The translations under genes were made by a program, and so were the position numbers. DNA of 64,000 bases, filler included, from Rhabdomonas costata (Eukaryota): the NCBI GenBank assembly GCA_019059605.1. It is 47 parts of 47 records of this genome, joined end to end, with 100 filler letters (N's around TTAATTAATTAA, not from the genome) between each part and the next. Parts side by side here need not be neighbours in the genome. Positions count along the whole stretch, not along the records: positions 46,398 to 47,655 come from JAHMHO010021409.1; positions 47,756 to 49,019 come from JAHMHO010021410.1; positions 49,120 to 50,383 come from JAHMHO010021411.1; positions 50,484 to 51,742 come from JAHMHO010021412.1; positions 51,843 to 53,107 come from JAHMHO010021413.1; positions 53,208 to 54,471 come from JAHMHO010021414.1; positions 54,572 to 55,835 come from JAHMHO010021415.1; positions 55,936 to 57,199 come from JAHMHO010021416.1; 39 more parts are not named here. One strand, written 5' to 3'. Under the pieces are notes generated by a model that saw nothing but the letters and a program-made list of their open reading frames with translations, ran no database searches and was not told the origin of the DNA. Position 1 is the stretch's first letter. Each line of letters starts with the position of its first letter. This document shows, piece by piece, positions 15,346-62,654 of this stretch.

Positions 15346-15753
15346 GGAGATACCCGTGGGGTACCTCTGCCCTCCTGTTCCGAACCGTGAGGCCTACGTT
15401 CGATGGATCGCGCAGCTCGTCCTCTCTCCTGGCGCTGCCGGCACAGACCTTCGTGGGATAGACATAGGTCAGAGCCTCTCTTTTTAAGCAGAGCTTCTGA
15501 AACATTTTGTTCGCTTGTTCTTGTTTTTCTCACGGGACATCGAAAGTCTCCCTTCCTTCTCTCACTTACGCTGCCTCTGGGATCGGCCTTGGCGTGATCT
15601 TTTGGGCTCCGTTTTTGTGTTCCCACAGGGACGGGGGCGTCCTGTATCTACCCTTTGCTGGGCAATGCCCTGTTTGGGTTCCAGTTTGTCGCCACTGAGG
15701 CGGACCCCAAGTCCAGGGACCTGGCACAGCAGAACGTCAGCCGCAACAATCTG
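15346..15753 (+). CDS. METTL16: METTL16/RlmF-family RNA m6A methyltransferase, two exons (15346-15467, 15629-15753)
   Basis: Spliced translation EIPVGYLCPPVPNREAYVRWIAQL...RGIDIG/TGASCIYPLLG...FVATEADPKSRDLAQQNVSRNNL; DIGTGASCIYPLLG is the family SAM-binding motif; GT-AG intron in matching phase. Confidence 0.93.
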
Positions 15754-16867: not shown

Positions 16868-17183
16868 CCTGTGTGAAGGCAAAAAGGGCTCAATATCACC
16901 CAAAAGGGCCGTCGAATAGCTTCTAGGGTGGCTGTACACACGCATTCAGGCCCACTCCGGTGCCAAGTGCTCCTGGGCTTAAGGTATGCTAAGCAGGCCC
17001 GGCCGAATGCTCTGGCTCAGTATGCAGGCCTGCATCTGTCCAAAAAGGGCCCTTGAAAATTTTCGGAGTCGAAAATGCCCTGAAAAGGGCAAAAAAAAAA
17101 GGAACCTTGAAGGGGCCGTATCTCGGCGTAGAGAAGGTGTCCGAGGCCAGGATGCGGCCATCCAATTCCTCTCAGGGGTACTA
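16868..17183. repeat. Dispersed repeat family B, copy 1
   Basis: Long collinear similarity to 60937-61285, with shared blocks GGCCCACTCCGGTGCCA, ATGCTAAGCAGGCCCGGCCGAA, GTCGAAAATGCCCT and TATCTCGGCGTAGAGAAGG. Confidence 0.92.
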
Positions 17184-17434
17184 CCGTCCCACCAAATGTG
17201 AGCCCCAACCCTTCACTCCAGCTCGAGTTCTGGTCCACGTTAAGTCTCCGGTCTGGTTCGGGAGTGACCATACCGGATGTCACGTGTTGGCTTTCCTCTC
17301 GACTCATGTTTTCTCTATTCGCGAGCCACTGCTGCACTTAGGTCCGTGCCAATAATGCGGCCCATGATCGTGTTGGGCTTCTACAGGAGCTTCCAGTTGG
17401 CGTTACAGTTACAGGAGTTACAGTTCTGAGGGTT

Positions 17435-17647
17435 CTACCAGGTGGACCTATCTAGCCTCTTCAGCCGGCCTTCCGTACCTCCCGACTTGTCGGAGGCCTC
17501 ATCCGAAATGGGGGGGCCCAAAACTTCACCCTGTTCGCTGGGTAACTGCAAAAATCTGAGCGCATCTCTGGCTTTCGCGTGCCCTTGGTCTGCCGCCTGG
17601 CGGTACCACTCCTTCGCCATCGGTATGTTCCTTTCCACCCCAACCCC
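17435..17647 (-). CDS. Sel1-like repeat protein, C-terminal fragment
   Basis: GVERNIPMAKEWYRQAADQGHAKARDAL is a canonical Sel1 repeat. Confidence 0.88.
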   Translation of the reverse strand, partial: GVGVERNIPMAKEWYRQAADQGHAKARDALRFLQLPSEQGEVLGPPISDEASDKSGGTEGRLKRLDRSTW

Positions 17648-20600: not shown

Positions 20601-21914
20601 TACACGCCGAGAGAGTGCCGGTTGATCTGTCGGCACAGGGAGGACAATGCAGGGTGAATCGCTTACGATACCCTCGATGTGTGGCAATATCACGTCGTTG
20701 GGTTTACTTTCGCGTTTCGGTTGCACAGAATGTGGGGAGCTTCTTCTGATTGTGGTCGCGATCGTGATTGTTATTCGTGAAAAATAGCGTCCCTCAGAAA
20801 AAGTATTTGCATTTTCGAACAGCTTCCCTTCTTTTCACTTGCTTTGTCAAGATCAGTGAGGCAATGGTTTTGATTTTGCATCTTCTTTTTCGTCTGATGC
20901 TGGGGCTGGGGGTTTGCAACACAAAGGGGTGCGATGCCCTATGCACTCCTCTCCTTTCTTGACTTTGTTGACACGTTGCAGCGTTTTTTGCCCGTGCTTT
21001 TTTTCCTTCCGTGCTACTTTTCGCCACTCTTGCTCAAGAAGGTTGAGATGCCTGTGGCGCCTCACCGGTGGTAGTCTGTGTGTGTGCGCGCGCGGTACGT
21101 GAGTGGGACGTCCTCGTGCGTGTGTACTTGCCGAGGGGTGTCTTCCCCTCTCCTGTCTGTGTGTCTGTCTGTGTGTCTGTCTGCGTGTCTGTCTGTGAGA
21201 GCAAACCCATGTCAGTGCTCGCGAAGATGCTGGTGAACCCCAGCGCTCACGACCACGCGCACAAGCTCGACGTGATTCAGGACCCCAGGCTGAGAACTTG
21301 CCTCACGGTATGCATCCATGCGGGCGTCCTTTTCCCACATTCTCTCGTTCTGGCGTGCAGCCCGACGAGCACGTCTCTAGTCGCAGGCTTCCTCCCCACA
21401 GTGGGGTTCGACGAGAGAAGGCCGCAGTGCAGGAGTTGAGTCTCGGTGGTTCCATGCTGGGATAAAAAACCGCTTTTTAAAAATGTTTGTGTCAGTTGGG
21501 GGAGGGGGTGAGTTGTTGTCTGGATTTTTGAGCTTATGCATGTGGGCGGGGTCAGCACGCCAATATGAGGGGTAGATTCACATTCCCACCCCGCGAAAAA
21601 AAAAACGGAGTACACCGCAGAACGAGCTAACGAGCAGATCCCGGCCCAAAGGGCCTCATCACCCCACACAAAGACCCGGTTTGTTTAACGTTATCATGAG
21701 GGTAATGTGCACCAAAATAAGGGCTGAAATCCCCCACACACANNNNNNNNNNNNNNNNNNNNNNNNNNNNNNNNNNNNNNNNNNNNTTAATTAATTAANN
21801 NNNNNNNNNNNNNNNNNNNNNNNNNNNNNNNNNNNNNNNNNNTACAATCGATCCGGTTGCGAATCAGAACCCCACTCCCCAGAGTAGCATGGGCCAAAAT
21901 CACATTGCAAGAAC

Positions 21915-22973
21915 CTCGATAATTGATGGTGATCCAGTAGGCGTACAGCTTCGCGCAGGCTGTGCGGCACACAAATCCATGTGTGAGACATTTGTGCGTA
22001 TGTGTGTGAGCGTGCGTGGGAAACCCTCCCGCTGGGTTATGTGTGGACAGAGATACATTGTTTCTGTGCATCCGCAGCATGCGCGGGACCCTCGTCTTCT
22101 TCCCCACTTTCCAGTTTGGATAGAGTGAGGAAGAGCCGGCGGCGGCGTTACACCACAGGTGATACATTATCAACAAGGAGAGAAAAACCACGCACGGAGA
22201 AAGATCAGAGCAGCATAAAGCAATGGCGAAAGAATGGCGGAAAGCAACGTGATGTGGAAATGCAAGACCCAACGAACTCCCGCCCACACCGTAGGGAGAG
22301 CGGGGGTAGAAAGGGGTGGTCTCCTTCTGCGGGATCTCCATCACCTGTCCAAACAGCTCCGAAGTCGAGGCCTGAAGGCCACATCAGAAGACAGAGAGAG
22401 AGAGACAGAAAGAGAGACAGAGAGAGAGAGGAAAAGTTACCCCCTATGAAGGGACAAAGGTATGGGCCGTTGCATGCGCATATTGCGCACAATGAAACTA
22501 GTAAAGGTTGGATGCAACATGGTACACAGCACGCAAGGGTGCCTTTCCACCAAGATACTGCTTGCGCCTGTCCACTTGTCCCCCCGCTCTTATATAGGCA
22601 AAGCACCTTCGAAGATATCTCCCGGTGTTTCGAATGAGTGAATTGCAAGTACAAAAGTATTGACGAAAGCTTTGAACTGGTCCCTGCAGCAGCACAGGAA
22701 AGCCCAACGAATCAACGCACCCCTGGCACACATTTGGTACGAGTCCCCAAAACAACCAAGGCTCAACCAAAGCGGCATTCCTCACCTCCTCTTGCAATCT
22801 GGCACGCAATTTAAAACACACACTGTGGTCGCGCAGCGACACCTGATAGAACTTGACCTTGTGCGTCATCCCGGAGGCTTTGATCGCGTCGAGCATCTTC
22901 AGAACGCCCAACCCGTCCGCAGATCCGGTGTACTCGGGCAGCTCAAACGAGACCTTGACGTGGCTCTGGGCAG
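21915..22973 (-). CDS. GMDS: GDP-mannose 4,6-dehydratase, three exons (22973-22843, 22371-22290, 21959-21915)
   Basis: [16 protein letters not shown]...[12 protein letters not shown]...[28 protein letters not shown]; catalytic T-x-E and YxxxK motifs; both introns GT-AG and in phase. Confidence 0.97.
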
Positions 22974-25433
22974 CTGAGAAAAGCGAAAACTAAAAGAAAT
23001 CCTTAGCACTTACGCTGAAATCTAAGAGCCATATTAAACCATCTCCGTATCCAAGTGTTGATACCCTGTCTGCGCTTCTCGGACCCTCTCACCCCCACAA
23101 CCCCCCCNNNNNNNNNNNNNNNNNNNNNNNNNNNNNNNNNNNNNNNNNNNNTTAATTAATTAANNNNNNNNNNNNNNNNNNNNNNNNNNNNNNNNNNNNN
23201 NNNNNNNGAAAAACGCCAGGGAAGGGAAGGGGAAAGCAAACAGGAGGTTCCACGTCACAGAGGTGGGGCATGCACATGCGCGTAATGCGTAGCTCGAACC
23301 ACGCACCACACAAAGACAAAATACAGAGGAAGGTAGAGGAGTGTATGCAATACTGAGAAAGAAAAAAAGGAACAGGTCCAGAAAAGCGCACATCAAAAAC
23401 GGAGCCATTTGAGCATCGAACAATTAGAAGGATCAGTTGACCGGAGGAATTTCGGCTTGGCAGCGGTACTTGTACACGTACACTATTGTTCGAAGTTCCG
23501 ATGAAGGGGGAGAATATCGATTATCGATATCCAAAGCAAAGTTGCAGCGTTTTCCCTTTCTGCCATCACGAGCTCGATAAAGCAGAACAGACCATCCAGA
23601 AACAAAGGCATCGACAGAAATTTTCCCCTTCAGAATCAAACTGGTAAGCAAGCAAGGATCACGCGAGCCAAAGCACGAGTGAACAAGGGCGCAGGGCAGG
23701 TGACATTCACATATTCACACATACACAATTTCCTGCAGAACGCAGAACGCGTGTCCATGCAGATTCAAACAATGGCTCCTGCTTGGGTCTCAGACAATCT
23801 TCTTCACCGATGGAGAAGAAGCTGGGGCCATCTGAGACTCCATCGTGTGGCGAGGAGATCTACACATCCCACATACCAAAAACGGGGCTCGCAGATACGC
23901 ACGTCATTTTCAAAAAAAAATGCGTGAACCAACATCCCGGCACAAAATGACGGGAAGGGCGGGGAAGGGGGGGCTGCGTGTTCAAGTAGTGAACGATTCT
24001 CCGTCATGAGCACAGAGTCAACCGAAAAAAATGGATAGATAGAAATGGGCTTCACCAGGCGCGAGTATCTGGATCAAATTCGACTGCAATGAATGGTGTC
24101 ACCCATTCCCAAGTTCTTCCAAACTTACACGACGCCCTTCCCAGGCGGCACCCCTCTGACCCCGAAAAAACAATGCAAAGGACACTTGCAGGGCAAACCT
24201 CAGCAAAAGGGGGCATTCCGACTGGTGCGGCGAGAAGTCGTAGAAGATCACACAGTCAAAGTCCTCTGAGTCACACACACATACACACACGTACAACCTT
24301 GCACCGACCCACACAAGCACAGAAGGGTATAAAATGCACAACAGATAAAGCACTGTAACACTTGGGATCGGTTTGTGTGGGGCAAATCATCTTGCATAGC
24401 CGCCCGGCAAATGGCGTAAACTTTTAAGAGACAACACAGATCCATCCTCATGGAGGTGTAGCCAACCCCAACNNNNNNNNNNNNNNNNNNNNNNNNNNNN
24501 NNNNNNNNNNNNNNNNTTAATTAATTAANNNNNNNNNNNNNNNNNNNNNNNNNNNNNNNNNNNNNNNNNNNNGTCGGTGGTTGTGTCCCAAAATTGACCC
24601 ACGAGGAAGAGGGGGTGAAGATGCTTAATTAACGTTAGCTCCACCCGGAAACTGAGAGAATATTCCGTGACATTTTGATCTGAAGTCTTTGTGCGCTATA
24701 TTTGGGCCGCTGGTCTCGGATGGGTGTCTCTGAGTAGAGGTGCATAAACGACAGCTGGCAGTATAGCTTGGCAAACAGAAGGGGTTGCGCACAGACTTTT
24801 CCGCGTACAGGCTGCCATTTGCCCCAATCCAGCGTCCTATTGGGAACACGGTACAGACGACGGAAGGTTTAGACCGTGAACCTGAGTTCAGTCCATGTGA
24901 CAAAAAGTCTCACTTCACGGTGGAGCCCACTATATATATGCCCCTTTAGGATCAGTTTATTGAAAGTTCCGGCAGTGATGCAGGGGATCATTGCAGGCAA
25001 CGGCGCAGTGCTGGAACATACATGAACACGGGGGGTGCGTGGAAAAGGAAGGGAAAAGGAGGAAACGAATCAGGGAACTGCGATACGGGCGTAAGGCACT
25101 ATAAGACTAAAAGTATCCAAAGTTGGGATTCGAGAAAACCCGGAAACGGCATGCGGTCTAGAAATAGAGAGAGGTGGGCGTAACGGGGGTGAGACCTCGG
25201 AGTGGGGAGGAACGGGAGAAGCACCACAAGAGCAGGATGATAATTGCGGGAAAATTGTGTGCGTGCGTCGGCGGAGCATCGGAAGAGAACGGAGAGGAAC
25301 AAAGATGAGTTTATTTTGAGTTTTTGTTTAGTATTGTTTTTAAGGAGCCTTTTTGTGCCTACTGCACATGTCTTCGGTGCTTGTCCCCCAAATTCATTAC
25401 GATCATGACCTGACCCCCCCTCCCCTCGAACAG

Positions 25434-47184: not shown

Positions 47185-49131
47185 TAACGCGAAGAACGCA
47201 AGGGCCCGCTGAAAGAGTCTGACGGCCGATGTTCAAAATTGCTGTCCGTGGCATTGCCCCTGAAGCAATTCATTGCACATGGACATGTCGCAATGAACCC
47301 CGAGACTATCTCATCTCGGTTGAGACCCTTCGCATTAAAATTCTGGATTGTTGTTGGAGCCCAGTAACTGTGAATGGAACTGGGTATGTACAAGAGCGCG
47401 TGTAGCGAAGTACATTTCGTGTGAAATCATTCTCGCATATCCCCAAGCGCAACGGAGGGCATAATGACGAAACCAACAACGTATGTATAAAAACCCACAT
47501 GCCTCTATACCCGGGGGCCCAGACAAATGGCTCTCGGTCGGAAGAAACAAAGCAAGAATAGAGAATCCCCCGGACACCACCTGCAGCACCCTGCCGTGGA
47601 CCTCCGTCCGCCCGCCACGCAGCAGCTGCACCACCACGCGGCACCCGTTTGGGTCNNNNNNNNNNNNNNNNNNNNNNNNNNNNNNNNNNNNNNNNNNNNT
47701 TAATTAATTAANNNNNNNNNNNNNNNNNNNNNNNNNNNNNNNNNNNNNNNNNNNNGGGGGGGTTGTTCGAGAAGTGCACTCTGTGTGGGTGTGGCCCTGA
47801 AACCAATGTCCTGGCGTACTGGTTCCGTGCTTCCCGTGCGCCAGGCGGGACCAACGTCACCCAGCTGTGGTACCCCAGCAACTCCAGCAAGGACTGCATC
47901 CCTGGACGAGGCTCGCCCTGGGTGGACATCATCCTCCGGCCGAAGCCCTTGTGGGCCCTGCTCGCTCGGGCGATGGATGCGGTGATTGAAAACAAGAAGG
48001 CTCGGCCCATGCCGTTTCACTTTTATCCTAACCGGCTGTGGGATGCCCCGAGGTGAGAGACAGGCCACGATGGGATCAAAGTGATAAGTAGTGCCGAGCC
48101 CGGGCGCGAGCGAACGGCTGCGGCTCAGCTGGGTTTTTGAAGCACTCAGGCCAGAGCGATATCAGCTGGAAACAGGCTTCTTTCGAATGCTAGTGTTTAC
48201 AATCTGTCAGTCGGTATTGTTTGGGGCGACTTTTTTTTTGCGTGACAGCTGTTCGTGTCCACTGGGGAACGAGAACCCAGGTGGTGGGTTTTAGTAAGAG
48301 GTTTCTTTAAGTAGGCTAACACCTTCAAATGCACTCGGAGAGCAAAACAATTCTTGTTGTCCTTTATGCTTTGATGCCATTGACGGACCAGATGTCTGTG
48401 CATGTAACTCCCGGATATTGGGCCAGAATTTGGGTGGTGTGGTTGTTGATGTTGAGGTTGTTGACCCTGCCTACTCTCGCAGCGGACGCGCTTTGGTGAC
48501 ACTGTATTGGGGCTGAAGCTTTTTCGGCCATAATAAACACTCTGTTCTGAGTGGATGTTGTCCCGGTGATTGCTGGCTGCACTCCAATGGAGAGTCCAGC
48601 CTCCGCTGCAGCAGTGGAGCCGCCTCCCCTCGTGGATGAGGATCCTTTTATGATTCCGCCATCATTGTACCACAAGTACCTTGCCCTGTTTGAGCGGCAC
48701 CGGGAGCAGCCTCTATGGATTTCCAGTATGCCGCTGCACGGCGAGGGATTCGGGAAAAGCGTCGCTCTGTAGTTCTTCCGGATTGTGTCTGTGTGTGTGG
48801 CAGCCAGGACGGCTTGCAGGTTGTGCACCGTTCTGGATTTGTGGTTTGATTTCCGCTTTTTGCGAGTTGTTTGCGAGTCCCCCCACCCCGTGATTCTTTG
48901 TTTCTGCTGTCCGTTCCATCCTGCTTGCGGCTTATTTGCATGGTTTTGTGTTTCCCCTTCACCAATGCTTCGTGCCGTTAATCGTTCACTCGCTTGCTGC
49001 GAGTGTTCCACACAAACCCNNNNNNNNNNNNNNNNNNNNNNNNNNNNNNNNNNNNNNNNNNNNTTAATTAATTAANNNNNNNNNNNNNNNNNNNNNNNNN
49101 NNNNNNNNNNNNNNNNNNNGGGTGTGGGGGT

Positions 49132-50383
49132 AGATTAAAATATTTAGGTGATTCAGTAATTCGTTTATTATTATCTGAATATTTATATTGGAGATATGAA
49201 GATCAAGATGAAGGATTTCTAACAAGTCTAAGAATAAAATTAGAAAATGGTATTATGTTATCTAAAATATCACAATCATTAAATTTACATGAATATGTTT
49301 TAGTTGGTGATTGTGCACAAGAAGATACTGACATTGTTTATAAATCAAATTATAAAACAATTATGAGTGAAAGTGTAAAAATTCTAATTGGTGTATTATA
49401 TATTGATAAAAAATTAGATGTATGTAGAACATTATTTATAAATATAATAGAAGATGAATTTGATATTGCTGATATATTATATAATAACATAAATTACAAA
49501 GATAAATTATTACAATATTATCATAAAATGAAATGGAATGATCCAATTTATATCGTAGTTGAAAATTCAATAAATAATTATTCACATGAATTTGTAATTG
49601 GTGTACAAAATGGAATCGATAAAACAATTATTAGTTTAGGAACAGGTACAAGTAAATTAAATGCTGAACAAGAAGCTGCAAAAAATGCATTACAATATTA
49701 TGATGTTGATTATACATCATCTCAAGTTATACAAACTAAAACTGATCATGATATAAATGAAATTATACCACATTTATTAAATATGAAAAATATACATATA
49801 ACAGAAGAATATATAATAAATTTATTTAAAACATATAGTGAAGATATTGAAATTGATGATTTACATTTATATCAAATAGCAATGACACATAATTCGTATA
49901 CACATAATATTAAAAAATTAAACATAGTAAAAAAATTCATTAAAAATACATTAATTGTTCCTTCTAAACTAAAATCAGTAATACCATTACAGAAACAATC
50001 ATATGAAAGATTAGAATTCTTAGGTGATTCTGTATTACGTCTAATTTTATCAGAATATATATATTTAAGATATAGTGAAAGTAATGAAGGATTTATGACA
50101 AAATTACGAACAAATATTGAAAATAATAAAATATTGAATATTTTAACAAAAAAAATAAATTTACATAATTATTTATTAATCTCTAAAATAGAAGAACAAC
50201 ATTGTGGACGTACTGGAAAAATAGATATATTAGGTGATTTATTTGAATCTTTTTTAGGTGCTACTTATATTAATACATCATATGATACATCATATAAATT
50301 TGTTAAAGAAATATACGAAAAAGAAATAGATTTTGCATCTATCATTTATAATGATACAAATTATAAAGATCAATTATTAAGAT
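49132..50383 (+). CDS. Tandem ribonuclease III (degenerate RNase III - dsRBD - intact RNase III - start of second dsRBD), giant-virus (Mimiviridae-like) type; truncated at both ends
   Basis: Frame is open from contig start: RLKYLGDS...; dsRBD NYKDKLLQ...GTGTSKLNAEQEAAKNAL; second domain SYERLEFLGDS...ILGDLFESFLGA; then NYKDQLLR; intronless and about 20% GC by eye. Confidence 0.92.
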
Positions 50384-50771
50384 NNNNNNNNNNNNNNNNN
50401 NNNNNNNNNNNNNNNNNNNNNNNNNNNTTAATTAATTAANNNNNNNNNNNNNNNNNNNNNNNNNNNNNNNNNNNNNNNNNNNNTGTGTTTTGTGGCAGAG
50501 CCTGTGTCATGAGTCTGCTGATCCGAGGAAACAGAGGGCGCCTGTTGCTGTGTGTCTCACTCGGTGTGGGAAAACTATGTCGGTCTCGGAACCGGAACAT
50601 GTGGAGCCCTACAGCACTTGGGGAAGGCACCACATCATTACGTCGTCCATGAATGGCCAGCATTTGGCCTCAGCTAAGATTGCGCAGACAGGTTGACTCA
50701 GTCAGGAAGACATCGTGATGCGAATGATGCGAATTGGAAGTTGTAACGGTAAACACTTTTAATGGTTGCCC

Positions 50772-51073
50772 GTGTTAACCGTAACCAGAGGTGACAAAAA
50801 ACTGGATCAAAAGTTTCGCCAAATTAATTTCAAAACCGTAATGCATGCCAGCATTCTTAAAACAGCTTCATTTTTGCAAGGAGGTTAGGTTAGCTTTACC
50901 AGTGCTCCCTAAATGATAGTATTTTTGCTTAGCAGCTGAAAACTACTGCTGGTTAATACAGACTCGTCAACGGCTGGGATGTGGGCAGAGGAGTAGGACG
51001 GCATTAAATTAGGGGCCTTAATTAGTTTGTTAATGGTATACTCATATAAAAACTGATCATTGCTAACAGTTAC
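50772..51073. mobile_element. Family A MITE-like copy (intronic)
   Basis: GTGTTAACCGTAACCAGAGGTGAC...ATGCCAGCA...TTTACCAGTGCTC aligns to 327-478; right end TGCTAACAGTTAC. Confidence 0.55.
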
Positions 51074-51123
51074 GGTTACAGATACACACACACACACGTG
51101 AAAAAAAGGTTCAACGGCTGTAC

Positions 51124-51445
51124 CTCCGTAAATGTACAGCTCCGTTACAGGGGAAGCCCCATAAAGGGAGGCCGTACCCCCAGTGATAAAAATGCGGGAC
51201 CCATTCACAACGGCCCCAAAGAAAGTTAGTGGACCGGGCAGAAGGCTTCCTACCGCCCACTGGACCCCGCTCTCCGAGACCAAGACTTCGCTCACCGCAT
51301 CTGCCTGTGGGGAAGCAGTGGCACCGCCGAGAAGCCACATCTGCTCCCCATAGGTAACCAGTACGGCGCCCCAGCGGCCCCGATAGGTGTTCGAGGTAAA
51401 ATCCTGTATCCTGGACCATGAGATCCCATCACCGGTGCTCCACAC
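51124..51445 (-). CDS. Kelch-type beta-propeller exon
   Basis: VWSTGDGISW...RWGAVLVTYGEQMWLLGG...SESGVQW...FFGAVVNGSRIFITGG; CAG acceptor and G|GT donor. Confidence 0.8.
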
Positions 51446-51504
51446 CTGAGAGGATCCGAGGCAGACAGCGGAAAGAAAGCCTCAGTGCTCTAAATGTTTG
51501 GGGG

Positions 51505-51736
51505 GGGGTAACGGTTCCCAGTATTGTAAAGGACAGCCGCACCCGGTCGTGCCGTGCCGTGCCGTGCCAGGCAAAAACCATCATTAATCATCATCAACGG
51601 AGCACTGGCAAAATTATCCTAACCCCCCTTACGCAAAAATGAAGTTATCTTACGAATGCTGGCATGCTTTGCCTAATCCTCATCAAAATTAATTTCGCAA
51701 AAGCTTTGGGAAAAATTTCTTTTGCCACTGCTAACC
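51505..51736. mobile_element. Family A MITE-like copy, inverted relative to 50772-51073
   Basis: Starts GGGGTAACGGTT (exact reverse complement of 714-725); 51599-51736 reverse-complements to the shared internal block; ends CCACTGCTAACC. Confidence 0.55.
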
Positions 51737-51842
51737 AACACCNNNNNNNNNNNNNNNNNNNNNNNNNNNNNNNNNNNNNNNNNNNNTTAATTAATTAANN
51801 NNNNNNNNNNNNNNNNNNNNNNNNNNNNNNNNNNNNNNNNNN

Positions 51843-53107
51843 TTGTGTGTGGGATTTATGAAAGTGGTGGAATTCTGGAATTTGGGTGGAGGATTTTTCA
51901 CCAGGGGGGTCATTTTTTTCCGTGGAGTGTGATTTTTTGATGGGGTGCAGGAAATCTGGACCCCCTGTTTTCATTTTTAGCTAAGGTGTATGGTTTTTGG
52001 TTTTCATGTTTCGGGTTTTGGATTTTGGTCTTCGGTTTTCGTCTCCCTGGTTCCGGTTTCTGGCATCCTGTGTCTCGGCCTTTGTATGCATTGGGGTCGT
52101 CCTGGTTTCTGCGTGGGTGCGTAGGTGCGTGGGTGTGGGGTCGCGTGCAGGGTGAATTTCGGTCTTTGGTGTCAGGGTCGGGTTTGGGTATGGGTTCTTG
52201 CGTGCTGGCCTTAGTTTCGTGTACGTGCGCGTCGTCTTCTTCTTGTATTCTTGGGTTTTGGATTCTGGGTTCTGAGTTGGGTTGAACTTCAGGGTGACCA
52301 ATCCATACTACTCAGGACACTGGGAACGATCGTCGATATGTTGTGAAGCACGGAAGTAGCGAGTGGAGCAATGTTGGCCTTCCAACGATGGATATCCCGA
52401 GGGACAGCCGAGACAGAAACGAAGGCAGAGACCCTGACCCAGAACTCCTGACACGAAACGCACCCTCCATCCTGACACCGTGATGTCGCACCAACCCTCC
52501 ACCATCCACCCTTCACCTTCCACCCACACGACCAGCACGCAACCCACCCTGCAGCTCTCCTGCTCACAAACTCCAGCTCACACCGTCACGTCACACAACC
52601 TACGCACCTTCACCTTCTCACGCTCCACGTCACCCTCACCGTCTCACCCTCCGTCACACCTTCGCTTCCTCCATCCTCCACGAAATCCACGCAAACACGA
52701 AACCGTCCACCCTCCCCAACACCCACACCATCGACCCTCCACACACCCCAACCACCGACGCAAGACAGACCCTCAGACCCAACGCACAGACCGTGACCCT
52801 CCGACACCGTGACCCTCAACGTGACCCTGACCCCAACATCGCAACGTGACCCCAACGTGACACCATCCATCATCCACACCCTCTGACCCACCGCTCCAAC
52901 CTTCCACGCAACCTCCAACCTTCCACGCAACCTCCAACCTCCATCCTACGCACAGAACCCGAGAAACGAAACGCACGACCCTCACGCAAACCATCACCAT
53001 GACCCTCACGTCCAACCTCACGACGCTCCACTCCACTCCACTCCACTACAACTCACCCACTCCACCTTCCCACCTTACCCTCAGACTCCGACTCAGAACC
53101 CACCACC
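51843..53107. repeat. Low-complexity contig: G/T-rich left part switching to C/A-rich right part, with a 19-bp tandem repeat near 52898-52940
   Basis: Base composition visible by eye; motif CCCAACGTGACACCA shared with the tract near 27970. Confidence 0.7.
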
Positions 53108-53416
53108 NNNNNNNNNNNNNNNNNNNNNNNNNNNNNNNNNNNNNNNNNNNNTTAATTAATTAANNNNNNNNNNNNNNNNNNNNNNNNNNNNNNNNNNNNN
53201 NNNNNNNCGCTGGGAACCATGCCGGTGAATTTGGCTTGCTTCCGACGAGCGTTGCCATCTGCTCAACATATTGCCGAACTTCTGATTTACGCCAGTCCCT
53301 TAGCGTCCTTATGTGGCAGGCTACACTCTCTCAACGGACCCCAGGCGCCCTTCGCAAGTCCATCCGCAGTGGTATTACTAAGAAGTTATGACAATGCGAC
53401 GCTGGCCGAGACTCAG

Positions 53417-53525
53417 GGCAAGCTCGAGCGATCGCGCGAATCTCACCATGGGGCTTCTTTACGCGCTCAGCGTCATGTTGGGACTCAAATTCCTCCCCAT
53501 TCCCATCTTTAGTACCCTGAAAAGG
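53417..53525 (+). CDS. Possible nucleotide-sugar transporter (SLC35D/GONST-like) exon
   Basis: GLLYALSVMLGLKFLPIPIFSTLKR resembles the L-x-x-L-x-h-P-h-F-x-x-L-K-R helix of this family; boundaries uncertain. Confidence 0.5.
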
Positions 53526-54571
53526 GCGGCGTGGCTTGGTGTTGTGGTGTGGCTTGAGGAGTACTTCAGAGCCTCTGGTTGTCAAATTATTGAAAAGTTC
53601 CAATTTAAGATGACGCCTGATTCAGCAAATGCGACCCCCTCCCCAGGACTCTGTAATGTGATGCCGTACTGTCAAAGGTGAGAGGAGTCAACAGCTCGCG
53701 CACACATCCTGAAAACCTTTTTGCAGACAAGGCAAGACCACTATTCAAAAACAACAAATACAGCGGTGCTTGAAAATCGCCCAATGAGAAAATTTTCATT
53801 TCTAACCCAAAACCTGCCTTTTGGTGGCACTTTTTCTTTCTCGGACACGTGTTGTATTTTGGAAAGCATATTGCGTGACTTCGCCCGTAAGCGTTGGAAA
53901 TAGTTTCAGCTGGTCGTTGTAAGTCAGTGCAAAAGTGAGAGTAACCCCTCCACCATCGCCTATCCGTACCCTGAGATTGCTGGCTGGCTGGCTGGCTGGC
54001 TTTATTGTGGATTGAAAGTTCCCGGGGTTGGGTTCTCTCCGCCGTTTGAAAACGATGCAAGTGATGTCGAGCTAATCGAACAGCCGAGGAGGGGATCCTG
54101 TTCCAAAACGAGAGCTTCTGAAGGGTGAGATGATGTGCATTTGGGTTTGACCAGCCCTGCTTGTGTCCATTTTCTATTTCCCAGCTGCTCTCTGTCTTTT
54201 TTTTAAGTCTATTTGCTTCGATAAGAGAATGCCCCAGGAGGGCTACGCCCGGGACCCTTATTCCTTTGCTGGTGTGAACGCATTTCCAAACACTCCCCAC
54301 GGTGTTTTATTGGGGGTCTTTCTATTCTTACTTTTGAACACAATAGCTCTCGCTTTGGGTCGTCGCACACCCGACCTTAACTTGAGCCCTTAACTTGAGG
54401 CTGTTTTGCCTCCCCTCTTTCGCGATTAATCCGCTGCGAGCATGATAGACTACTAACAACCGGGGACAACANNNNNNNNNNNNNNNNNNNNNNNNNNNNN
54501 NNNNNNNNNNNNNNNTTAATTAATTAANNNNNNNNNNNNNNNNNNNNNNNNNNNNNNNNNNNNNNNNNNNN

Positions 54572-55835
54572 TTGTTTTGGCGGAGCTGCACTATTGGAAG
54601 CTTCGCTTGACTCAACTGAGCGGGCTGGCCGACCAGCTCAAAGCACGGCAGTGCAAAACCGTCTTGCAGGTTTTGAATGCAGCAAAGGATCCGCTTTTGG
54701 TGCGGTTCCGGGAAATGGATGGCCGGGTCACTGACGTCCTAAACGAGGTAAAGGACAACGTGAAGTATTTATCTACCCTGGAGAAATTTGTTGAGCCAAT
54801 GTACGCCGCGGATCCGTGCCGAATGATTGCTGCCATTCCTGGGCTGATAAGTGCCATTCGGATAATGCACAGCATTGCCAGGCATTACAACACGGAAAAG
54901 ATGACGTCGCTTTTCACACGGATCACAAATCAGTTGATTGTGTGTTGCAGAAGCTACATCGAATCTGAAGGATCCATTTGGGAGCAAGACACTGGAGCTG
55001 TCATCACCAAGCTTGGGACCTGCATCAACCTGAATCAGGTGTACCAGAGCGAGTATCGACGCACCAAAACCGACTTGTCCTCCAACTTATTTGGGAAACA
55101 GTTCGACTTCAGTGAAGTTGCCATCTTCAGTCGATTTGACGTTTTTTGCGCGAGAGCCGAGAAGTTAATTGCCGTGCTTGAGACGACAATGCAATTTGCT
55201 ACTCTGGCCAAGTCTCCGATAGAGGGCATCGGACCGATCTGCACAAAGTTTGAGAACGTTTTCACCACTTTTCGTCGAAGAAACAATGCGGACGTTCTGG
55301 ATACTCGCAAAATTGCTTTTGATGCCGTGTACCACGAGTTTAGCAACGGCGTCGCGGACCTGTCTGTGGAGCTAGTGGTGTTTATCAACAATTGCTTTCT
55401 GACGGTTACGCAAACCACCAAGGCATTGGAGCTGCTCGCGCAGTTTCGGGCGGTGCTCAGCAAGGAACACGAATCTCTGCTCGAGGAAAAGCACCTCGCC
55501 ATTTTTCACAATTATGGCCGTGATTTAGAAATGCTTCGGTCCGTGTACGAGAAGAGCAAGGAGCGGCCCCCGATTCAGCGCAATATGCCTCCTGTTGCCT
55601 CTGCGATAGCATGGGCCAGGCAGTTGCTACGACAGATTGAGCAGCCCATGTTAAAGTTCCAGGAAACGCCCTCAATCTTGAAGTCCAAGGATGCGAAGAG
55701 GATAATTCGAAGTTACAACCAGCTTGCCAAGACGCTGCTGATGTTTGAGGCACGATGGTACGCAAAGTGGTGTGAGGGGATTAAAGCTGCCAAAGCAGGT
55801 CTCGGAGCTACGCTGCTAGTTGAGGACACGAATTC
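54572..55835 (+). CDS. Axonemal dynein heavy chain, N-terminal tail (DHC_N1), outer-arm gamma / DNAH5-8-like; truncated at both ends
   Basis: ELHYWK, NEVKDNVKYLSTLEKF, SIARHYNTEKMTSLFTRITNQLI, FDFSEVAIFSRFDVF, RNMPPVASAIAWARQL; contig-long open frame. Confidence 0.95.
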
Positions 55836-57046
55836 NNNNNNNNNNNNNNNNNNNNNNNNNNNNNNNNNNNNNNNNNNNNTTAATTAATTAANNNNNNNNN
55901 NNNNNNNNNNNNNNNNNNNNNNNNNNNNNNNNNNNTGTTTTTTTTGAAGGTCCAGGATTCTTGGGGGATTTGCAATGAAGAAGGTGGACTGGACTCTTTC
56001 CGGTCAATTTCTGACAATCTCCCCCTCCGGCCGGACAAACATCAAGTTTTGCCATGAACTGTCTGGATTCCGTCCCCTGTACCCGTGGGATTCAACCCCA
56101 GCTTCCGCGGGAAGAGGTGAACAGAAGTCTTTCCCCCAGGCCGCCGTGCCAGCTTGCGGACCCACAACGTTGGACTGTGGGTGATCGCCTTGCCCATGTG
56201 GCTCGATTTTGGATGAAGGAATCATGCTCGACGATTCTCACCTTATCCGGCGGACCAAGCTATTCAAACAGGAAACCCTTCGGGTCCAACCTGAATGCAT
56301 AGCACTGCATGTAACCTTTGTGGGTCAAGTGTCATGCGCGAGCGAATGAGTGGACTGAAACCAACACTCAGGTGGCTCACATTGAGTCAAATAGCGAGGG
56401 CGCAAGATTTGGGAAAGACGACAATGGATGTAATCCGTATTCTCGGAAAAGCCCACCTGGGGCGAAATCAAGAACTGATACTGAAGAACTGATGCTGGGC
56501 ATTGGTACCGGAGAGAGAGTATGCCGTCACACATAAGGTGTTGGGTCGCTTAATAACCCCCTGATCAGCAAAAATGAGCTTACAAGCTAACCGTTTGCTC
56601 CCTTGCTCGATGCCGAAATGAAGTGCAGTGGACGCATCTGCGCTGAGATCCTCCCACCAAATTCTCTTTGCTATTTAAGACTGGCAGGTGAGAGAGAGAG
56701 AGAGAGGACAATATGTGCCCTCACTATCACTATCACCACCACTCTGCCCTCTCTCAAAGGGAACCCCTGAAGCCTGCTCTGCGTCGGGTGCTGCTACGCA
56801 CGTCTCCGGACGACGACAGCACTGGCGGCAGCAGCAGCAAAGCCGCCGTAGAGCAGCTGGTGCGGAAGTTGATGGTCCCTGTGGTTGTCATGGGCCCGGG
56901 GATCTTCGGCACGGAGCGCCCTGTCACTGCGCCAGTTCAGGTGCCACCTCATTCACTTCAGCTTCAGGTCCCTCGTCGCTCACCCTCGCCAAAAAAAAAG
57001 AAAGAAAGGAAATAAACTCTCGAAAAAACACGAGGAAGGTTTTCAC

Positions 57047-57192
57047 GTTCAATGCTTTGCAACGGCTTTTCAGCCCCTCCAGAATGTCTGCATAACAGTT
57101 CGAGTGCGAAGTTGAAGCACGTGCAAGTGTCCGCCTCTACTTGTGTCGCAGACATTCTGGAGGGGCTGAAAAGCCGTTGCAAAGCATTGAAC
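57047..57192. repeat. Perfect 45-bp inverted repeat at contig end (likely fold-back)
   Basis: 57047-57091 is the reverse complement of 57148-57192. Confidence 0.95.
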
Positions 57193-57299
57193 AACAAAAN
57201 NNNNNNNNNNNNNNNNNNNNNNNNNNNNNNNNNNNNNNNNNNNTTAATTAATTAANNNNNNNNNNNNNNNNNNNNNNNNNNNNNNNNNNNNNNNNNNNN

Positions 57300-58562
57300 T
57301 GTGGGTTGTGCGCCTTCGCGCCGCCAAGGTCGTGTCCATTCCCCGCCATACGAGGCTGTTAGGGTACCCTGGCCGCGCCCGCGAGCGAAGCCGCACAACC
57401 CGCGCCACGCCCATGCATAGCAGCTGCAACCCCTGCCGCACTTGCGTCACGGCCTGCACCGGGTCCTCTATTAGCACAAAGTCCTTTTCCAGGAATAGCA
57501 CGTAGGGCGTGGGGCTGCGCTGCACAAGCGCGTCCAGGACGACCCCAGCGGTGAGAGGGCGGGAAGCCGGTCGGGCCTTGACGGCCGTTCCAGGAAACAC
57601 GGTGAAGTTGTAGGAGTGGAGAATCTGCAGGATCTGTGAAGATTTTCGACCACCCAGGGGAACGAGAGCCAGAGCAAAGACGATCTCTGGTTTGGCATCA
57701 TCAATGATTTTTCATATTGATGGGTGGCTGTGTCTGCATGTGTTTCTTTTTTGAGCAGAAGGGGGGGGGGGCATGTTTTGGAACGGCATGGCCAGCGGCT
57801 TGGAGGGGTTCATCCGGGTGCACCGCTATTTTTTTTGGAGCCGGACTGACAACCACGCCGCCACACGGCCAGGGCTTGCTGTGCGCGAAAGCACCATAGG
57901 AAAAAATCCTGCCGGGACATGACCTTCTGCTGACAAACATGAACATACGCAAACGGCAGCGAATCAGAACAGGAGTTGGTAACGCCCGCCAGTGGTGCAA
58001 AGAACGGGCTAGGGTATTCGGCAGTGAGGGACCGGGAGGAAGGACCAAAGCCACAATGAAACAATGCCACGCAATCCACAAATAGGCAGCACATTTGCCA
58101 TTGAATGATACATGTCGTGTTCGGTGTGGCGAAGGTATGAAAACAAAACCTTCTCGAAGCGCCTCCTTCATACATACACGATTCGCCCATCTTAATTCTC
58201 TCCCACGGCATAGTCAACCGCCGCTCCTCCGCATTCCACCGATTGCCTAGCAGAACACCAACCAGGACAAAAGAGAGCGAAGCCCACCTTCTTGCCAGGC
58301 CCAGGTAGCATCAGGGCCAACTTGTGCTGCACCAGTGCCAGCAAGCCCGCGGCGGCCCAGCTAAGCAGGGCAGGCTGCAAAGCGGGGAAGTCCTTTGGCC
58401 CCGAGGCCACCGCAAGGGTGATCGGAAAGGGAGCAGCCTCGCGCAGGAACCTGCACTGTCTTTCCGGAATGGCAGAAGGCGGGGCCATCTGCACGGCAAC
58501 CGCAGTCGGGATGCCCCCTTGCCCTGGAGATGCAATGCACTCTCCAAAGGCCAACCACAACC
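57300..58562 (-). CDS. GT-A fold glycosyltransferase-like protein, exons about 58562-58288 and 57624-57300
   Basis: ITLAVAS...LQPALLSWAAAGLL, then YVLFLEKDFVLIE (DxD-equivalent EKD) and VVRLRSRARPG; AAG|GT donor and CAG acceptor. Confidence 0.6.
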
Positions 58563-58668
58563 NNNNNNNNNNNNNNNNNNNNNNNNNNNNNNNNNNNNNN
58601 NNNNNNTTAATTAATTAANNNNNNNNNNNNNNNNNNNNNNNNNNNNNNNNNNNNNNNNNNNNGGTGGT

Positions 58669-58764
58669 GTGGGGGACGTACCACGGCTGTCAAATTTGGG
58701 ATGCCCGAAAGACTATCTTGCCTTTCGGGCATCCCAAATTTGACAGCCGTGGTACGTCCCCCAC
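58669..58764. repeat. Perfect 43-bp inverted repeat with 10-nt loop at contig start (likely fold-back)
   Basis: 58669-58711 is the reverse complement of 58722-58764. Confidence 0.95.
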
Positions 58765-60894
58765 TCCTCCCTGGTGATAGTGAGGTCAAAAAGACCATAG
58801 TGTATGCTATCATCTTTTGAAAGACGACAGTGACAAGAAAAAGTCAGTAGTGTTTACGATCAAAGTATTCTGCACACCATCTTTTCCCGTTGCTATGGTA
58901 TGGTATGGTATTTTGGATTCGCGTTTAGAGTTTTCAACCCAGCAAGTTGAGTTTCGAAAATTACACCTCGCTTCGGCTTCACTTTTTTGCCTAGTATTAA
59001 TGCGGATATCACTGCATGGGATTGAATTGTTTACAGTGCGTGGCCGAGATTTTTGCGTGGGTGCAGTCAGGGTGTAACAATAAGCGGATTCATTACAACC
59101 GTGCTTGTAAGGGAGGGAAAAAATGTCTTTTCGTTGCTCCGCTTGACGCTTTTATTTTTAATTTTTTTTCCCGAAAACTTCCTTTTCGCCGGAGAGCGAG
59201 AGAGATTCAACCACAGGCACAAATTTGTAACCCGCAGATCAAAGTCAGCGGAAAGTCGCAGGGTTCCATTATGCACATTTGGTGAGGGAGATTTACGTTA
59301 CGTGTGCGTTTGGTGGTGCCGAGCCGCTTGTTATCCCGGAGGGGTATTCTAGCAGGATCCTCTTCGCATACCCACAAGAGCCTCTGTAGCGAGAAAATAT
59401 CGGTGATTTTAGGCAGCCCAGGTAGAGTCCTCAGGGGCACCGGCCACCACCTCAGAAGGTTGACCGCGTGCCACCAAACCGGCATGGGCGAGTGTACATT
59501 GAGGTGTTCCACAATTTTTCACTTGGAAACTCTCAAGTCAACCGCCGCCACTAAAACCCTTCCCGAATTACTGACTCAATTCGATTTTGCAAATCGATCA
59601 AGGGAAAATTTTTGGACATAGCTTCTCAATCTTTGAAGCATATAGAATCCAAAGATCCTTCCTCCCATTTGACGCAAGTGGCGAAGAATCCCGAAAGACG
59701 GTTCATGGCACCATTTTCGTCGAACAACTTTCCTTCATCCACGTAACAGTAAAATCGAACTTGTTAGCTACACGGAGAGGGGCGACCGCATTCAAATGGA
59801 AGCGGCCGCCTATCAAGGACAGGTAAGCCAGACAAAGCGTCAGATCTTTTTCTTGGATTTTGCCGTCTGAGGGTGCCGAGAATGTTGGCGATGGACGGTG
59901 GCACTGTGCTCGGTACCCAAAAAANNNNNNNNNNNNNNNNNNNNNNNNNNNNNNNNNNNNNNNNNNNNTTAATTAATTAANNNNNNNNNNNNNNNNNNNN
60001 NNNNNNNNNNNNNNNNNNNNNNNNGGGTGGGGTGGTGGCAGGGGTAAAAGGAAGTGCGAGTGGTGGTATTACATCTATCCGTTATGTGTCTGAAGGTCTA
60101 ACTAGTTGCTTTCTCTTCTTCAGATATTTTCTCGTTTATTGAATCTCGCCTGTATTCGCCTCCCTCTTTCAGCCTGGTGGTTTCTGTATATTAGCCTGGA
60201 AGCTTCTCCGACGTCAAAAGCGTGGAGGAGCACCAAATAAGGTTTACTTTCATTCTGGCCTATGATGACTAGCTGTGAATTGCACCAACTTTGGCATGGG
60301 TCTCAAGTCAGTGGAATTTTGGCGTGCGCATTGGAAGAAGTAGTTTCGAGCATTCGCACTTCCAAGCTCCGATTTCTCACGTTGAGGTAGATCCACGTTT
60401 GCCAGGTGTAGGTTTTCCCACGTTACTACCAATGCGTTGCCTTCCTCAGCTTTAAAACAGCAGCACCCCCTCCCTCAATTGTCAGCAAATTTAATCACCA
60501 TTATACCTCATGCGAAATTCATCGTTCAATGCGTCAGGTGTGAGCTTGATATGACACTGGCATTCTTGTGCATCGGTTTGCACGCGTCCGAAGTCCTTCT
60601 CTTTCCCTCAGAATTTCAAGCTAGTTCCGTTATTTTGTTCCTGTGTCATGGTGTTGCTGTGGAACTGAAAGCTCAACAATGGTGCGTCTACTTTCCTCTT
60701 CATTCTGGATCGGTCAGGAAGTGTGTTTCTCTCCATTTAACACATTTAACATTTACAAGGTAAAAAACTATTCTGTGCTTTGAAGTCAATTTTTTTGTGT
60801 CATCCGAGCAATGTTACTTAAGATATAAATCGCTGCCGACACACCGGCGTGCAGGTGGGCGGACGGTGCGCCAGCCTACAGTTCTTTCTCGTAT

Positions 60895-61285
60895 CAGTAC
60901 GCAGGCCTGCAAAGGGCCAAAAAGCGCCCTTGGAAGCCTGTGTAAAGGCAAAAAAGGGGGGCTCAAAAATACCCAAAAACGGCCCTGAAATGGCCTCTAG
61001 CGTGTCTCTAAACCGAAGCATTCCGGCCCACTCCGGTGCCAGCATGAAGTACTCCTGGGCTCTACCTTTAGGCCTTAGGGATGCTAAGCAGGCCCGGCCG
61101 AAAGCTTAGGCTCAGCATGCAGACCTGCAAGGGGCCAAAAAGTGCACCCCCGGCCCTTGAAATTCTTTCCAAGTCGAAAATGCCCTTAAAAGTTCCAAAA
61201 TGGGACCTTGATGGGGCCATATCTCGGCGTAGAGAAGGACCCGGAGTCCGGGAAGCGGCCAACCAATTCATCTCAGGAGTACTAT
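60895..61285. repeat. Dispersed repeat family B, copy 2, with an internal partial duplication
   Basis: Collinear with 16868-17183; block CAGYAYGCAGRCCTGCAARGGGCCAAAAAG occurs at about 60895 and 61114. Confidence 0.92.
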
Positions 61286-61391
61286 CAAANNNNNNNNNNN
61301 NNNNNNNNNNNNNNNNNNNNNNNNNNNNNNNNNTTAATTAATTAANNNNNNNNNNNNNNNNNNNNNNNNNNNNNNNNNNNNNNNNNNNNGG

Positions 61392-62654
61392 TCAAACTTT
61401 AACGGTCAAATTCCTTTTACATTTAAAACACCAACGAATAAATGGTGCAAGCCTAGAGAATGCTTTTTAGCTGTAAAACTTCGAATTGATCAAGTAGATG
61501 CTTCAGGTGTTCATAGTCCTCTTCAAGCTGTTTCTGGTGCTGGAACACCCTACATTTCCAAAAATCCCGTCTCTCTGCTCTTCTCCACTGGGAAAGTCTT
61601 AGTCAATGATAAGATGATATCCAATATGAACGAATTGCCTGCCACGAATACATTATTTCGTACAATTTATGATACAAAGAGCATGCAAGAAACGATAGAA
61701 TCAACTAATCCAATTTTGCCACAATCTCTGACTGACACTGTTAGCAATACAGCACGTCTTGCTTATGCTAATAAATGTCAGCTTCTATTAAATACGTTTC
61801 AAGAGCAGACTTTAACTTGGTCTTTACCATTTCCACTCTTTCAATCTAATGAATGGATTCCGCCACATACTAAAGTAGAAATTGATTTTAATGTAAACAC
61901 GAATTGGATAAATGAGATCTTATCTGTAGTTGGGACGTTTCCAGCTGGTGGTGTAGTTCCTTTATCATCAACTGGTACAAATTCCACTGTATCGAGCGTC
62001 GGAATAGGTGTGGACGATATCAGTCTTTGGCTTTATTATGTTACAGATGTAACACCTGTAAATATGGTTCATGAAATTCATCTTAAACAGTACTTTTCTC
62101 AAGTACATACGATTACATCTAATAATGAAGCATTCACATTGACACTTCCAAATGGAGGACGTAACATTACTCATATTTTAGCTTGCTTCTTACAAACTGG
62201 TAGGTCTGGAACTGTAAAAAAATCATCTAATGATTTTAGCTCTGGTTTTACAAATGCTGCAACAGAGGCTAAAATTACAACTGATGCTACAACTAAGCTT
62301 CAAATGATTAGATTCCAACTTGATAAAACATACCCAAATCCTGATTATAACTTATGTTTTGATTCATCTAAAAAAGATTCTATAGACGTGGGTAGAGCAT
62401 TCTACGATTTCATTAATAATGCTGATGCTAAATTTGATCGTAGTGGGAATGTTGTATCTATTCAACAATGGATTAATGAACCTATTTTCTGTTTTAAGGT
62501 AAATTCTGATGCTACTACTTATCACGAATCACTTCAAGTATATATTACGTTAGATTCTGGTTACACACCTGCTACGACTTCTTCTCAACTTTTGGTAGTA
62601 GCATTGTATGATGAAACATTGCGGCTACATTTCGATACAACATTCCCACAAACC
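61392..62654 (+). CDS. Putative double-jelly-roll major capsid protein of a Polinton/Maverick or Polinton-like virus (nearly complete, both ends cut)
   Basis: Frame open from 61392: NFNGQIPFTF...WCKPRECFLAVKLRI; NPVSLLFSTGKVLVNDKMIS; PLFQSNEWIPPHTKVEIDF; VDDISLWL; YPNPDYNLCF; RAFYDF; VSIQQWINEPIFCFKV; LLVVALYDETLRL. Motif order fits Polinton-type capsids; intronless and AT-richer than host contigs. Confidence 0.75.

Follow-up and report, generated by a model that had tools for sequence, protein, structure and literature searches.

Few cultured or cell-resolved systems of a host, a giant virus, and a virophage or polinton-like virus (PLV) exist, and each new system helps to test integrated small viruses as an inducible defense against giant viruses. 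Such tripartite systems have reportedly been found in Phaeocystis and, in the account of a preprint, in Tetraselmis. The system in Cafeteria is described as established (PMC10945749). The late promoter of its giant virus, Cafeteria roenbergensis virus (CroV), is given as TCTA flanked by AT-rich sequence and is presented as common to mavirus and the type-4 endogenous mavirus-like elements (EMALEs) (PMC8547959, PMC5294985). Here, we analyzed a window of 64,000 nucleotides from Rhabdomonas costata (GenBank assembly GCA_019059605.1), which is the whole stretch of DNA considered below. An earlier note, made from the sequence alone, had proposed a possible system of this kind in it, consisting of a flagellate host, a giant virus (contig A), and a PLV (contig B).

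The window is likely to be eukaryote DNA amplified with degenerate G/T primers, in which two of the 47 contigs are viral passengers, one with a giant-virus RNase III gene and the other with a small-virus capsid gene. The data as such point to the presence of two such viruses in the amplified material, which is common in low-input protist genomics. As in the Cafeteria-CroV-mavirus system, a eukaryote host with a flagellar dynein and a fragment of a Mimiviridae-like virus are found in the same library.

Composition and primer-like tails of the two viral contigs

The 47 contigs, which were separated at N runs, are 1246–1270 bp in length (about 1265 bp), and the artificial joiners between them have the form N...TTAATTAATTAA...N. 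Because contigs of near-equal length are joined by N linkers, the window represents a slice of a fragmented assembly whose contigs had been sorted by size, and the nearness of contigs A and B within it results from size sorting, as the earlier note had already stated.

The GC (guanine plus cytosine) content of the remaining 45 contigs ranged from 0.457 to 0.598, with a mean of 0.515 and an SD of 0.032. The measured values of contigs A and B, 0.210 and 0.354, matched the previous by-eye estimates of about 20% and about one third. Tetranucleotide profiles were strand-symmetrised and composition-corrected, and host contigs were scored leave-one-out against the host centroid. The correlation with the centroid was r = 0.24 for contig A and r = 0.27 for contig B, compared with 0.47 to 0.80 for the 45 host contigs, and the correlation between contigs A and B was 0.27. 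These GC and tetranucleotide results show that the two contigs are non-host-like and mutually dissimilar, which bears out what had been noticed by eye.

Of the 47 contigs, 35 begin with a stretch of 8 nt or more made of G and T only, and 29 end with a stretch of C and A only of the same minimum length. Twenty-two contigs have both tails and 5 have none, and no contig has the two swapped, with C/A at its 5′ end and G/T at its 3′ end. The background of G/T-only 8-mers amounts to 1% of internal contig positions. This pattern indicates that many contigs are single amplicons between a non-self-complementary degenerate primer and its complement; such degenerate primers are made from G and T alone. 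Each outlier contig carries one such tail, as had been proposed (12 nt at the 5′ end of contig A and 10 nt at the 3′ end of contig B; Table 1). The initial four codons of contig A do not align with its relatives, and the tblastn match of contig B to its relatives stops at 62639, 15 nt short of the contig end. Since homology halts at the tail in both contigs, the tails are primer-derived and not viral sequence. These results indicate that both viral templates were amplified by the same chemistry as the host DNA, and we infer that they were physically in one amplification with it. The proposal of joint amplification with the host therefore held for the shared chemistry, and the tails fit carry-over from a sister library too.

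The tandem RNase III gene of contig A

Contig A is a single open reading frame (ORF) that encodes an internal fragment of a tandem RNase III. Pfam matches of the protein were PF00636 (Ribonuclease_3; 1.7e-34, in two stretches), PF14622 (1.7e-36), and PF00035 (dsrm; 5e-9), and the class 1 RNase III layout, a catalytic domain followed by a dsRNA-binding motif, is present. The two RNase III units share 39% identity. The closest database relatives are tandem proteins of 553–640 aa on contigs of up to 490 kb, with 49–55% identity over 83–100% of the query, and they have the layout RNase III, double-stranded RNA-binding domain (dsRBD), linker, RNase III, and dsRBD. More distant tandem forms with 30–35% identity are found on contigs of 144–530 kb. 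The annotations of the closest tandem relatives were looked up, and none was informative.

The lysines of unit 1 (RLK.LGD; E..K; SESVKILIG) are invariant in all six tandem proteins of alignment A2 (P0035–P0039 and the window protein). The two acidic signature positions are ones to which we ascribe, by assumption, a catalytic role in RNase III. Lysine at both of them marks unit 1 as a predicted degenerate domain, and its nuclease site is probably catalytically degenerate. This arrangement suggests that the tandem RNase III would be an intramolecular pseudo-dimer with one active center. That contigs of giant-virus size carry an RNase III fused in tandem, its first site apparently degenerate, is modestly new.

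To place contig A among giant viruses, IMG/VR was scanned with a single-domain RNase III alignment, which gave 597 pattern matches, 592 of them confirmed; 80 loci (L016–L095) were kept. The eight best loci (L016–L023) were 42–45% identical to the contig A RNase III, and it is unit 2, including its N-terminal extension, that aligns with these giant-virus genes. The label GVMAG appears in 31 of the 80 contig names in the table of loci, and the median GC content of the 80 loci is 0.264. In the five loci inspected from the eight best, the order of TFIIS, Acanthamoeba polyphaga mimivirus (APMV)-type poly(A) polymerase (PF19244 and PF21649), RNase III, and SNF2 helicase was kept in all five. One or two unknown ORFs lie between the poly(A) polymerase and RNase III, with a Band 7 gene at this place in L016.

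Furthermore, in the 60-nt stretches that precede 1107 ORFs of the 80 loci, the 8-mer with the strongest enrichment was AAAATTGA, with 66 occurrences observed against 7.1 expected (9-fold). For Mimivirus and CroV, this sequence is described as the motif of early promoters (PMC5294985). In the ESM Atlas, the clusters nearest to the contig A protein were 95–100% viral and most commonly Nucleocytoviricota. A phage or a bacterium as the source of the RNase III was considered and rejected, as the best identity in the phage collection was 26–30%, compared with 49–55% for the tandem proteins on large contigs and 42–45% for the giant-virus loci. Taken together, the comparisons make it very likely that contig A derives from an Imitervirales/Mimiviridae-like giant virus. 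The giant-virus identity proposed for it is thereby upheld, its nearest inspectable relatives lying in Mimiviridae-like gene clusters.

Contig A resembles the Mimiviridae case in that its IMG/VR relatives adjoin APMV-type poly(A) polymerase, TFIIS, and SNF2 helicase genes and in its very low GC content (0.21 compared with the median of 0.264). It differs in that its gene is a fused two-unit tandem with lysine at two acidic positions of unit 1. The mimivirus RNase III beside the poly(A) polymerase is presumably gene R343. The contig A protein would be a single chain with two units, each an RNase III domain followed by a dsRBD, and the nuclease site of the first would be degenerate. The single-unit RNase III of related giant viruses sits in a transcription and RNA-processing cluster, and the contig A enzyme may cut double-stranded or hairpin viral RNA.

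The capsid gene of contig B and its relatives

Contig B encodes a fragment of a double-jelly-roll (DJR) major capsid protein (MCP) in its short form. In a large protein collection, 32 relatives were found at E <= 0.001, the closest with 72–74% identity, and a profile search of 1.84 billion cluster representatives returned 198 representatives of 50%-identity clusters with E <= 0.001. Full-length proteins of this family are about 435–458 aa in the short form and about 545–552 aa in the long form. In alignment A1, the two forms are set apart by a single insertion of about 107 aa (residues about 142–247 of the MCP of the relative L001), which the window gene lacks and which is predicted to be an extra beta-rich module.

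An AlphaFold2 (AF2) model was made for P0004, which is 72% identical to the window protein, from an alignment of 18 sequences including the window protein. The model had a predicted local distance difference test (pLDDT) score of 68.4 and a predicted template modeling (pTM) score of 0.56. In Foldseek at E <= 0.001, it gave 77 matches in BFVD and 186 in the PDB. The top BFVD match was a Sputnik-like virophage capsid (E 7e-12), followed by an adintovirus capsid protein, the Qinghai Lake virophage MCP, adomavirus LO7, and pithovirus, African swine fever virus (ASFV), and mimivirid MCPs. The PDB matches included the MCP of Singapore grouper iridovirus (SGIV), Sputnik (3j26), mavirus (6g44/6g45), PRD1 P3, adenovirus hexon, and PBCV-1 Vp54. 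The match list was uniformly composed of DJR capsid proteins. The protein had no match in the phage collection, and two pattern scans of IMG/VR, with the protein and with the alignment, gave no confirmed relative of the capsid family.

The metagenome scan for capsid-family relatives returned 15 loci. One of them, L001 (19,042 bp, about 30% GC), belongs to a relative 72% identical to the contig B virus; the gene content discussed here is that of L001, and the window itself holds the MCP fragment only. Besides the MCP, L001 encodes an rve integrase, a Peptidase_C1-type cysteine protease, an HNH endonuclease, and an ORF with Walker A and B motifs (Table 1). In the 1376-aa ORF, Exo I/II and Pol A/B/C-like motifs were recognized by eye together with an Endonuclease VII insert, and its nearest Atlas clusters were DNA_pol_B_2 plus Endonuclease_7 (score 0.98), mostly from eukaryote genomes and Preplasmiviricota. 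The order of the candidate ATPase, the 328-aa protein, the MCP, the 83-aa ORF, the 149-aa ORF, the protease, and the HNH gene is partly common to L003, L004, L005, L007, L008, L010, and L013–L015; a homologue of the L001 cysteine protease lies at 3586–4332 of L004. The fold of the capsid model and the gene complement of L001 support the reading of contig B as a major capsid gene from a small dsDNA virus of polinton/mavirus-like type. Since the gene set of L001 appears to be a polinton/mavirus complement, the name polinton-like virus given to contig B is right in a broad sense. The capsid clade, which is fairly large, has a mavirus-like genome, and is so far known from metagenomes only, is modestly new.

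Compared with mavirus and the EMALEs of the Cafeteria and CroV system, L001 likewise has an rve integrase, a probable protein-primed PolB (pPolB), a cysteine protease, a DJR MCP, and a candidate for a packaging-type ATPase, and the capsid model matches the mavirus MCP (6g44/6g45) with E of about 1e-9. In contrast to mavirus, the capsid family has no sequence-level similarity to solved or Pfam capsid families, its protease in L001 is papain-type and not of the Ulp1/adenain type, and its upstream motif is TTTTCT[AC] and not plain TCTA. With PLVs and polintons, it shares the small dsDNA virus type, the DJR MCP, a putative morphogenetic module, and a PolB-like ORF near the DNA_pol_B_2 plus Endonuclease_7 clusters. 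In their original definition, PLVs are mostly without pPolB and rve integrase. L001 differs from them in that it appears to carry both, and it hence looks more polinton/mavirus-like.

In this model, the contig B virus would have a dsDNA genome of about 19 kb and an icosahedral shell of DJR capsomers. Judged from L001, it would package its DNA by a Walker-type ATPase, would probably replicate with its own protein-primed PolB, and could integrate via the rve integrase.

Upstream motifs of the small virus and the giant virus

The motif comparison was made on the loci of the relatives, since the window contigs hold no intergenic DNA. The motif TTATTTTCT[CA]..TATAG was found 20–26 nt upstream of the MCP start in all eight loci compared (L001 7600–7667; L002, L003, L004, L006, L010, L014, and L015), and the same motif was present upstream of the 83-aa ORF after the MCP in 8/8 loci. 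Upstream of the 149-aa ORF, an AATCTAA[TC]TAATTA-type box was found in four of six loci and only the shorter AATCTA core in the other two. The two upstream boxes may represent two temporal promoter classes. In L001, TTTTCT occurred in 7 of the 17 upstream windows of 45 nt, a count reached by none of 2000 shuffles and none of 2000 random-window sets, and also in two antisense windows. Plain TCTA showed no enrichment upstream in L001 (6/17, reached by 397 of 2000 shuffles). The motif TTTTCT[AC] is AT-flanked, and its TCT[AC] core resembles the CroV late and mavirus promoter. As a lead, the small-virus family may use a late promoter of the giant-virus type.

In the giant-virus loci, ATTTTCTA was not enriched upstream of the 1107 ORFs (7 compared with 7.0 expected), ATTTTCTC occurred 6 times compared with 2.9 expected, and TTTTCT was present in 70 of the 1107 upstream windows. 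This indirect form, made on relatives, of the promoter comparison that had been suggested found no motif common to the small-virus family and the contig A-related loci, and the promoter evidence leaves the capsid family without a link to the lineage of contig A. In the window, no L001-family gene was found besides contig B. When 1128 ORFs of the giant-virus loci were compared with the window, the only other match was a GDP-mannose dehydratase on a contig of host composition.

Relationship between the host and the two viruses

Several observations weigh against two viral passengers in amplified eukaryote DNA as described above. Index hopping or carry-over from another same-kit library would likewise yield tailed contigs. 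Each viral contig is 1.26 kb in length and wholly coding, with no host junction, intergenic DNA, or second gene. For contig A, all 80 IMG/VR loci have a single-unit RNase III and the tandem form occurs in none, so that the giant-virus assignment rests on relatives of 42–45% identity together with contig sizes; scans of IMG/VR with the full protein and with the tandem alignment gave no confirmed relative. For contig B, the capsid protein matched no family in Pfam or PHROGs, the protein and its profile gave only chance-level matches to PDB sequences, the capsid-family relatives (including 10 cluster representatives looked up) bore no informative annotation, and the quality of the capsid model is moderate (pLDDT 68, TM-scores of 0.36–0.47). 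In L001, the ATPase and PolB-like ORFs were not recognized by Pfam, the latter also having no PolB match among PDB sequences, and the candidate penton is without confirmation (no Pfam match; single-sequence AF2 model with a pLDDT of 32).

With the passenger status of the two contigs taken as likely, the tails fit equally well with infection of the cell, with integration, with virions that were ingested or attached, and with carry-over from a sister library. It is quite possible, at somewhat less than an even chance, that virions or viral DNA were ingested, attached, co-sorted, or carried over from a same-kit library, unrelated to each other and with no infection. Marine protist single-cell genomes are described as often holding viral DNA, which is attributed to predation on free particles (PMC7541821), and the relatives found here for the two fragments stem from collections of metagenomes, environmental assemblies, and IMG/VR. 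The composition of both fragments is far from that of the host with no sign of amelioration, and one contig of each viral kind is found among the 47. Everything in the window is compatible with infection, however, and one contig of 47 per virus would, if representative, amount to a high viral proportion, an argument weakened by amplification bias. Endogenous elements, with the capsid gene in an integrated polinton/virophage-like element and the RNase III maybe in an integrated giant-virus segment, are rather less likely. The integrase of L001 and the rise in GC content at one end of that locus from about 27% to 44%, which could reflect flanking DNA, would fit integration of this type, and integrated virophage- and PLV-like elements are reported to be common in protist genomes (PMC10120064, PMC8547959). 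However, no junction was seen in the window, no terminal inverted repeats were found in L001, and GC contents of 0.35 and 0.21 compared with 0.515 for the host argue against long residence. Both 421-codon frames are intact, as would be expected of an active virus and equally of an insertion of recent date.

The probability assigned to integration (of one or both) overlaps with that of a three-party system, in which the flagellate is infected by a Mimiviridae-like giant virus together with its virophage or giant-virus-dependent PLV, possibly integrated and protective. We regard such a system as unlikely. In its favor, both viral fragments bear the primer tails of the library, and the capsid family has a mavirus-like gene set of about 19 kb with about 30% GC. 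The TTTTCT[AC] motif stands upstream of the capsid gene and the next small ORF in 8/8 loci and is enriched in L001, and its TCT[AC] core is reminiscent of the CroV late and mavirus promoter as described in PMC8547959 and PMC5294985. Comparable systems are described in flagellates and algae (PMC10945749). However, plain TCTA is not enriched in L001 (6/17; 397 of 2000 shuffles), the extended motif is not enriched in the contig A-related giant-virus loci, the window has no other L001-like or giant-virus-specific gene, and PLVs are described as possibly replicating without a giant virus (PMC10945749). The sole evidence is the co-occurrence of two 1.26-kb fragments in one library, and viral DNA in single protist cells is frequent. 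The three-party interpretation is kept at a low probability. It is correspondingly improbable that the flagellate is the natural host of both a Mimiviridae-like virus with a half-dead tandem RNase III and a mavirus-like virophage. If this were true, it would provide the first host and giant-virus partner for a metagenome-only capsid clade (198 clusters at 50% identity) and would add a tripartite model to those of Cafeteria, Phaeocystis, and Tetraselmis. A cell association of the capsid clade, if the one suggested here holds, would possibly be its first.

Host contigs and annotated features

The features of the window and of L001 are listed in Table 1.

Table 1. Coordinates of features in the window and in the capsid-virus relative L001
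Sequence	Feature	Coordinates	Strand	Remarks
Window	Contig A	49120..50383	+	GC 0.210, z = -9.5
Window	Contig A ORF	49120..50383	+	Single frame, 421 codons, open at both ends; internal fragment of tandem RNase III
Window	Primer-like tail, contig A	49120..49131	+	12 nt, G/T-only, 5′ end only; not homologous to relatives
Window	RNase III domain, unit 1	49132..49494	+	K replaces E in both signature stretches (RLKYLGD; SESVKIL)
Window	dsRNA-binding motif, unit 1	49495..49698	+	Residues 126-193; PF00035 E 5e-9
Window	RNase III domain, unit 2	49990..50316	+	Residues 291-399; ERLEFLGD and GDLFESFLGA intact
Window	Contig B	61390..62654	+	GC 0.354, z = -5.0
Window	Contig B ORF	61392..62654	+	421 codons, open at both ends; DJR MCP fragment, short form
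Window	Primer-like tail, contig B	62645..62654	+	10 nt, C/A-only, 3′ end only
Window	Dynein heavy chain tail	54572..55835	+	Uninterrupted 420 codons; DHC_N1 1.2e-119
Window	GDP-mannose 4,6-dehydratase, two exon-like pieces	21843-23107: 22837-22974, 22210-22374	-	Gap about 460 nt
L001	S/T/N-rich repeat protein	153-3947	-	1264 aa
L001	Candidate penton	3929-4732		267 aa; no Pfam match; single-sequence AF2 pLDDT 32
L001	Phospholipase A2 (PLA2)-like domain protein	4754-5479		241 aa; parvovirus-type, PF08398 E 2e-8
L001	Walker A/B ORF	5862-6533	-	223 aa; AGTNQGKT, LFILED by eye; no Pfam match
L001	Basic protein	6627-7613		328 aa
L001	Major capsid protein	7668-9320		550 aa
L001	Small ORF	9356-9607		83 aa
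L001	Small ORF	9684-10133		149 aa
L001	Peptidase_C1-type cysteine protease	10379-11125		248 aa; E 7e-8
L001	HNH endonuclease	12273-12869		198 aa
L001	PolB-like ORF	13265-17395		1376 aa; Exo/Pol motifs by eye
L001	rve integrase	17396-18415		339 aa; PF00665 E 2e-12

One of the host contigs carries a fragment of a dynein heavy chain tail. Its named relatives, from oomycetes, ochrophytes, alveolates, a euglenid, and animals, showed 30–45% identity. They are of the axonemal outer-arm type (DNAH5, DNAH8, and "flagellar outer arm gamma chain"), the best of them at 40–45%, and the top match, an unnamed protein, reached 63%. These identities indicate a host without a close named relative in the searched collection. 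Given a dynein heavy chain of axonemal outer-arm type, a flagellate host, as previously suggested, is reasonable. A PCI-domain fragment was also found among the host contigs.

Most of the other 45 contigs had short ORFs only, and Rfam gave no match on the whole window. The two pieces of the GDP-mannose 4,6-dehydratase, which lie on a contig of host composition, were 47–57% identical to the homologue in the giant-virus locus L088. The short ORFs and the intron-split dehydratase indicate that the material is most likely amplified eukaryote genomic DNA that bears introns. A transcriptome origin was considered unlikely, as most host contigs lack long ORFs and the dehydratase is split by an intron-like gap.

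Three further features of L001 were observed. The protease of the capsid family matches papain-type Peptidase_C1; polintons and virophages carry an adenain/Ulp1-type protease. No terminal inverted repeats were found at the ends of L001, and in its last 190 nt or so (18850–19042) the GC content climbs from about 27% to 44%, so this end could be flanking cellular DNA, indicating integration, or a distinct terminal region. The gene for the PLA2-like protein has the candidate penton on one side and the Walker A/B ORF on the other, and the protein is possibly a membrane-penetration factor of a polinton-like virus, as its parvovirus-type domain would suggest.

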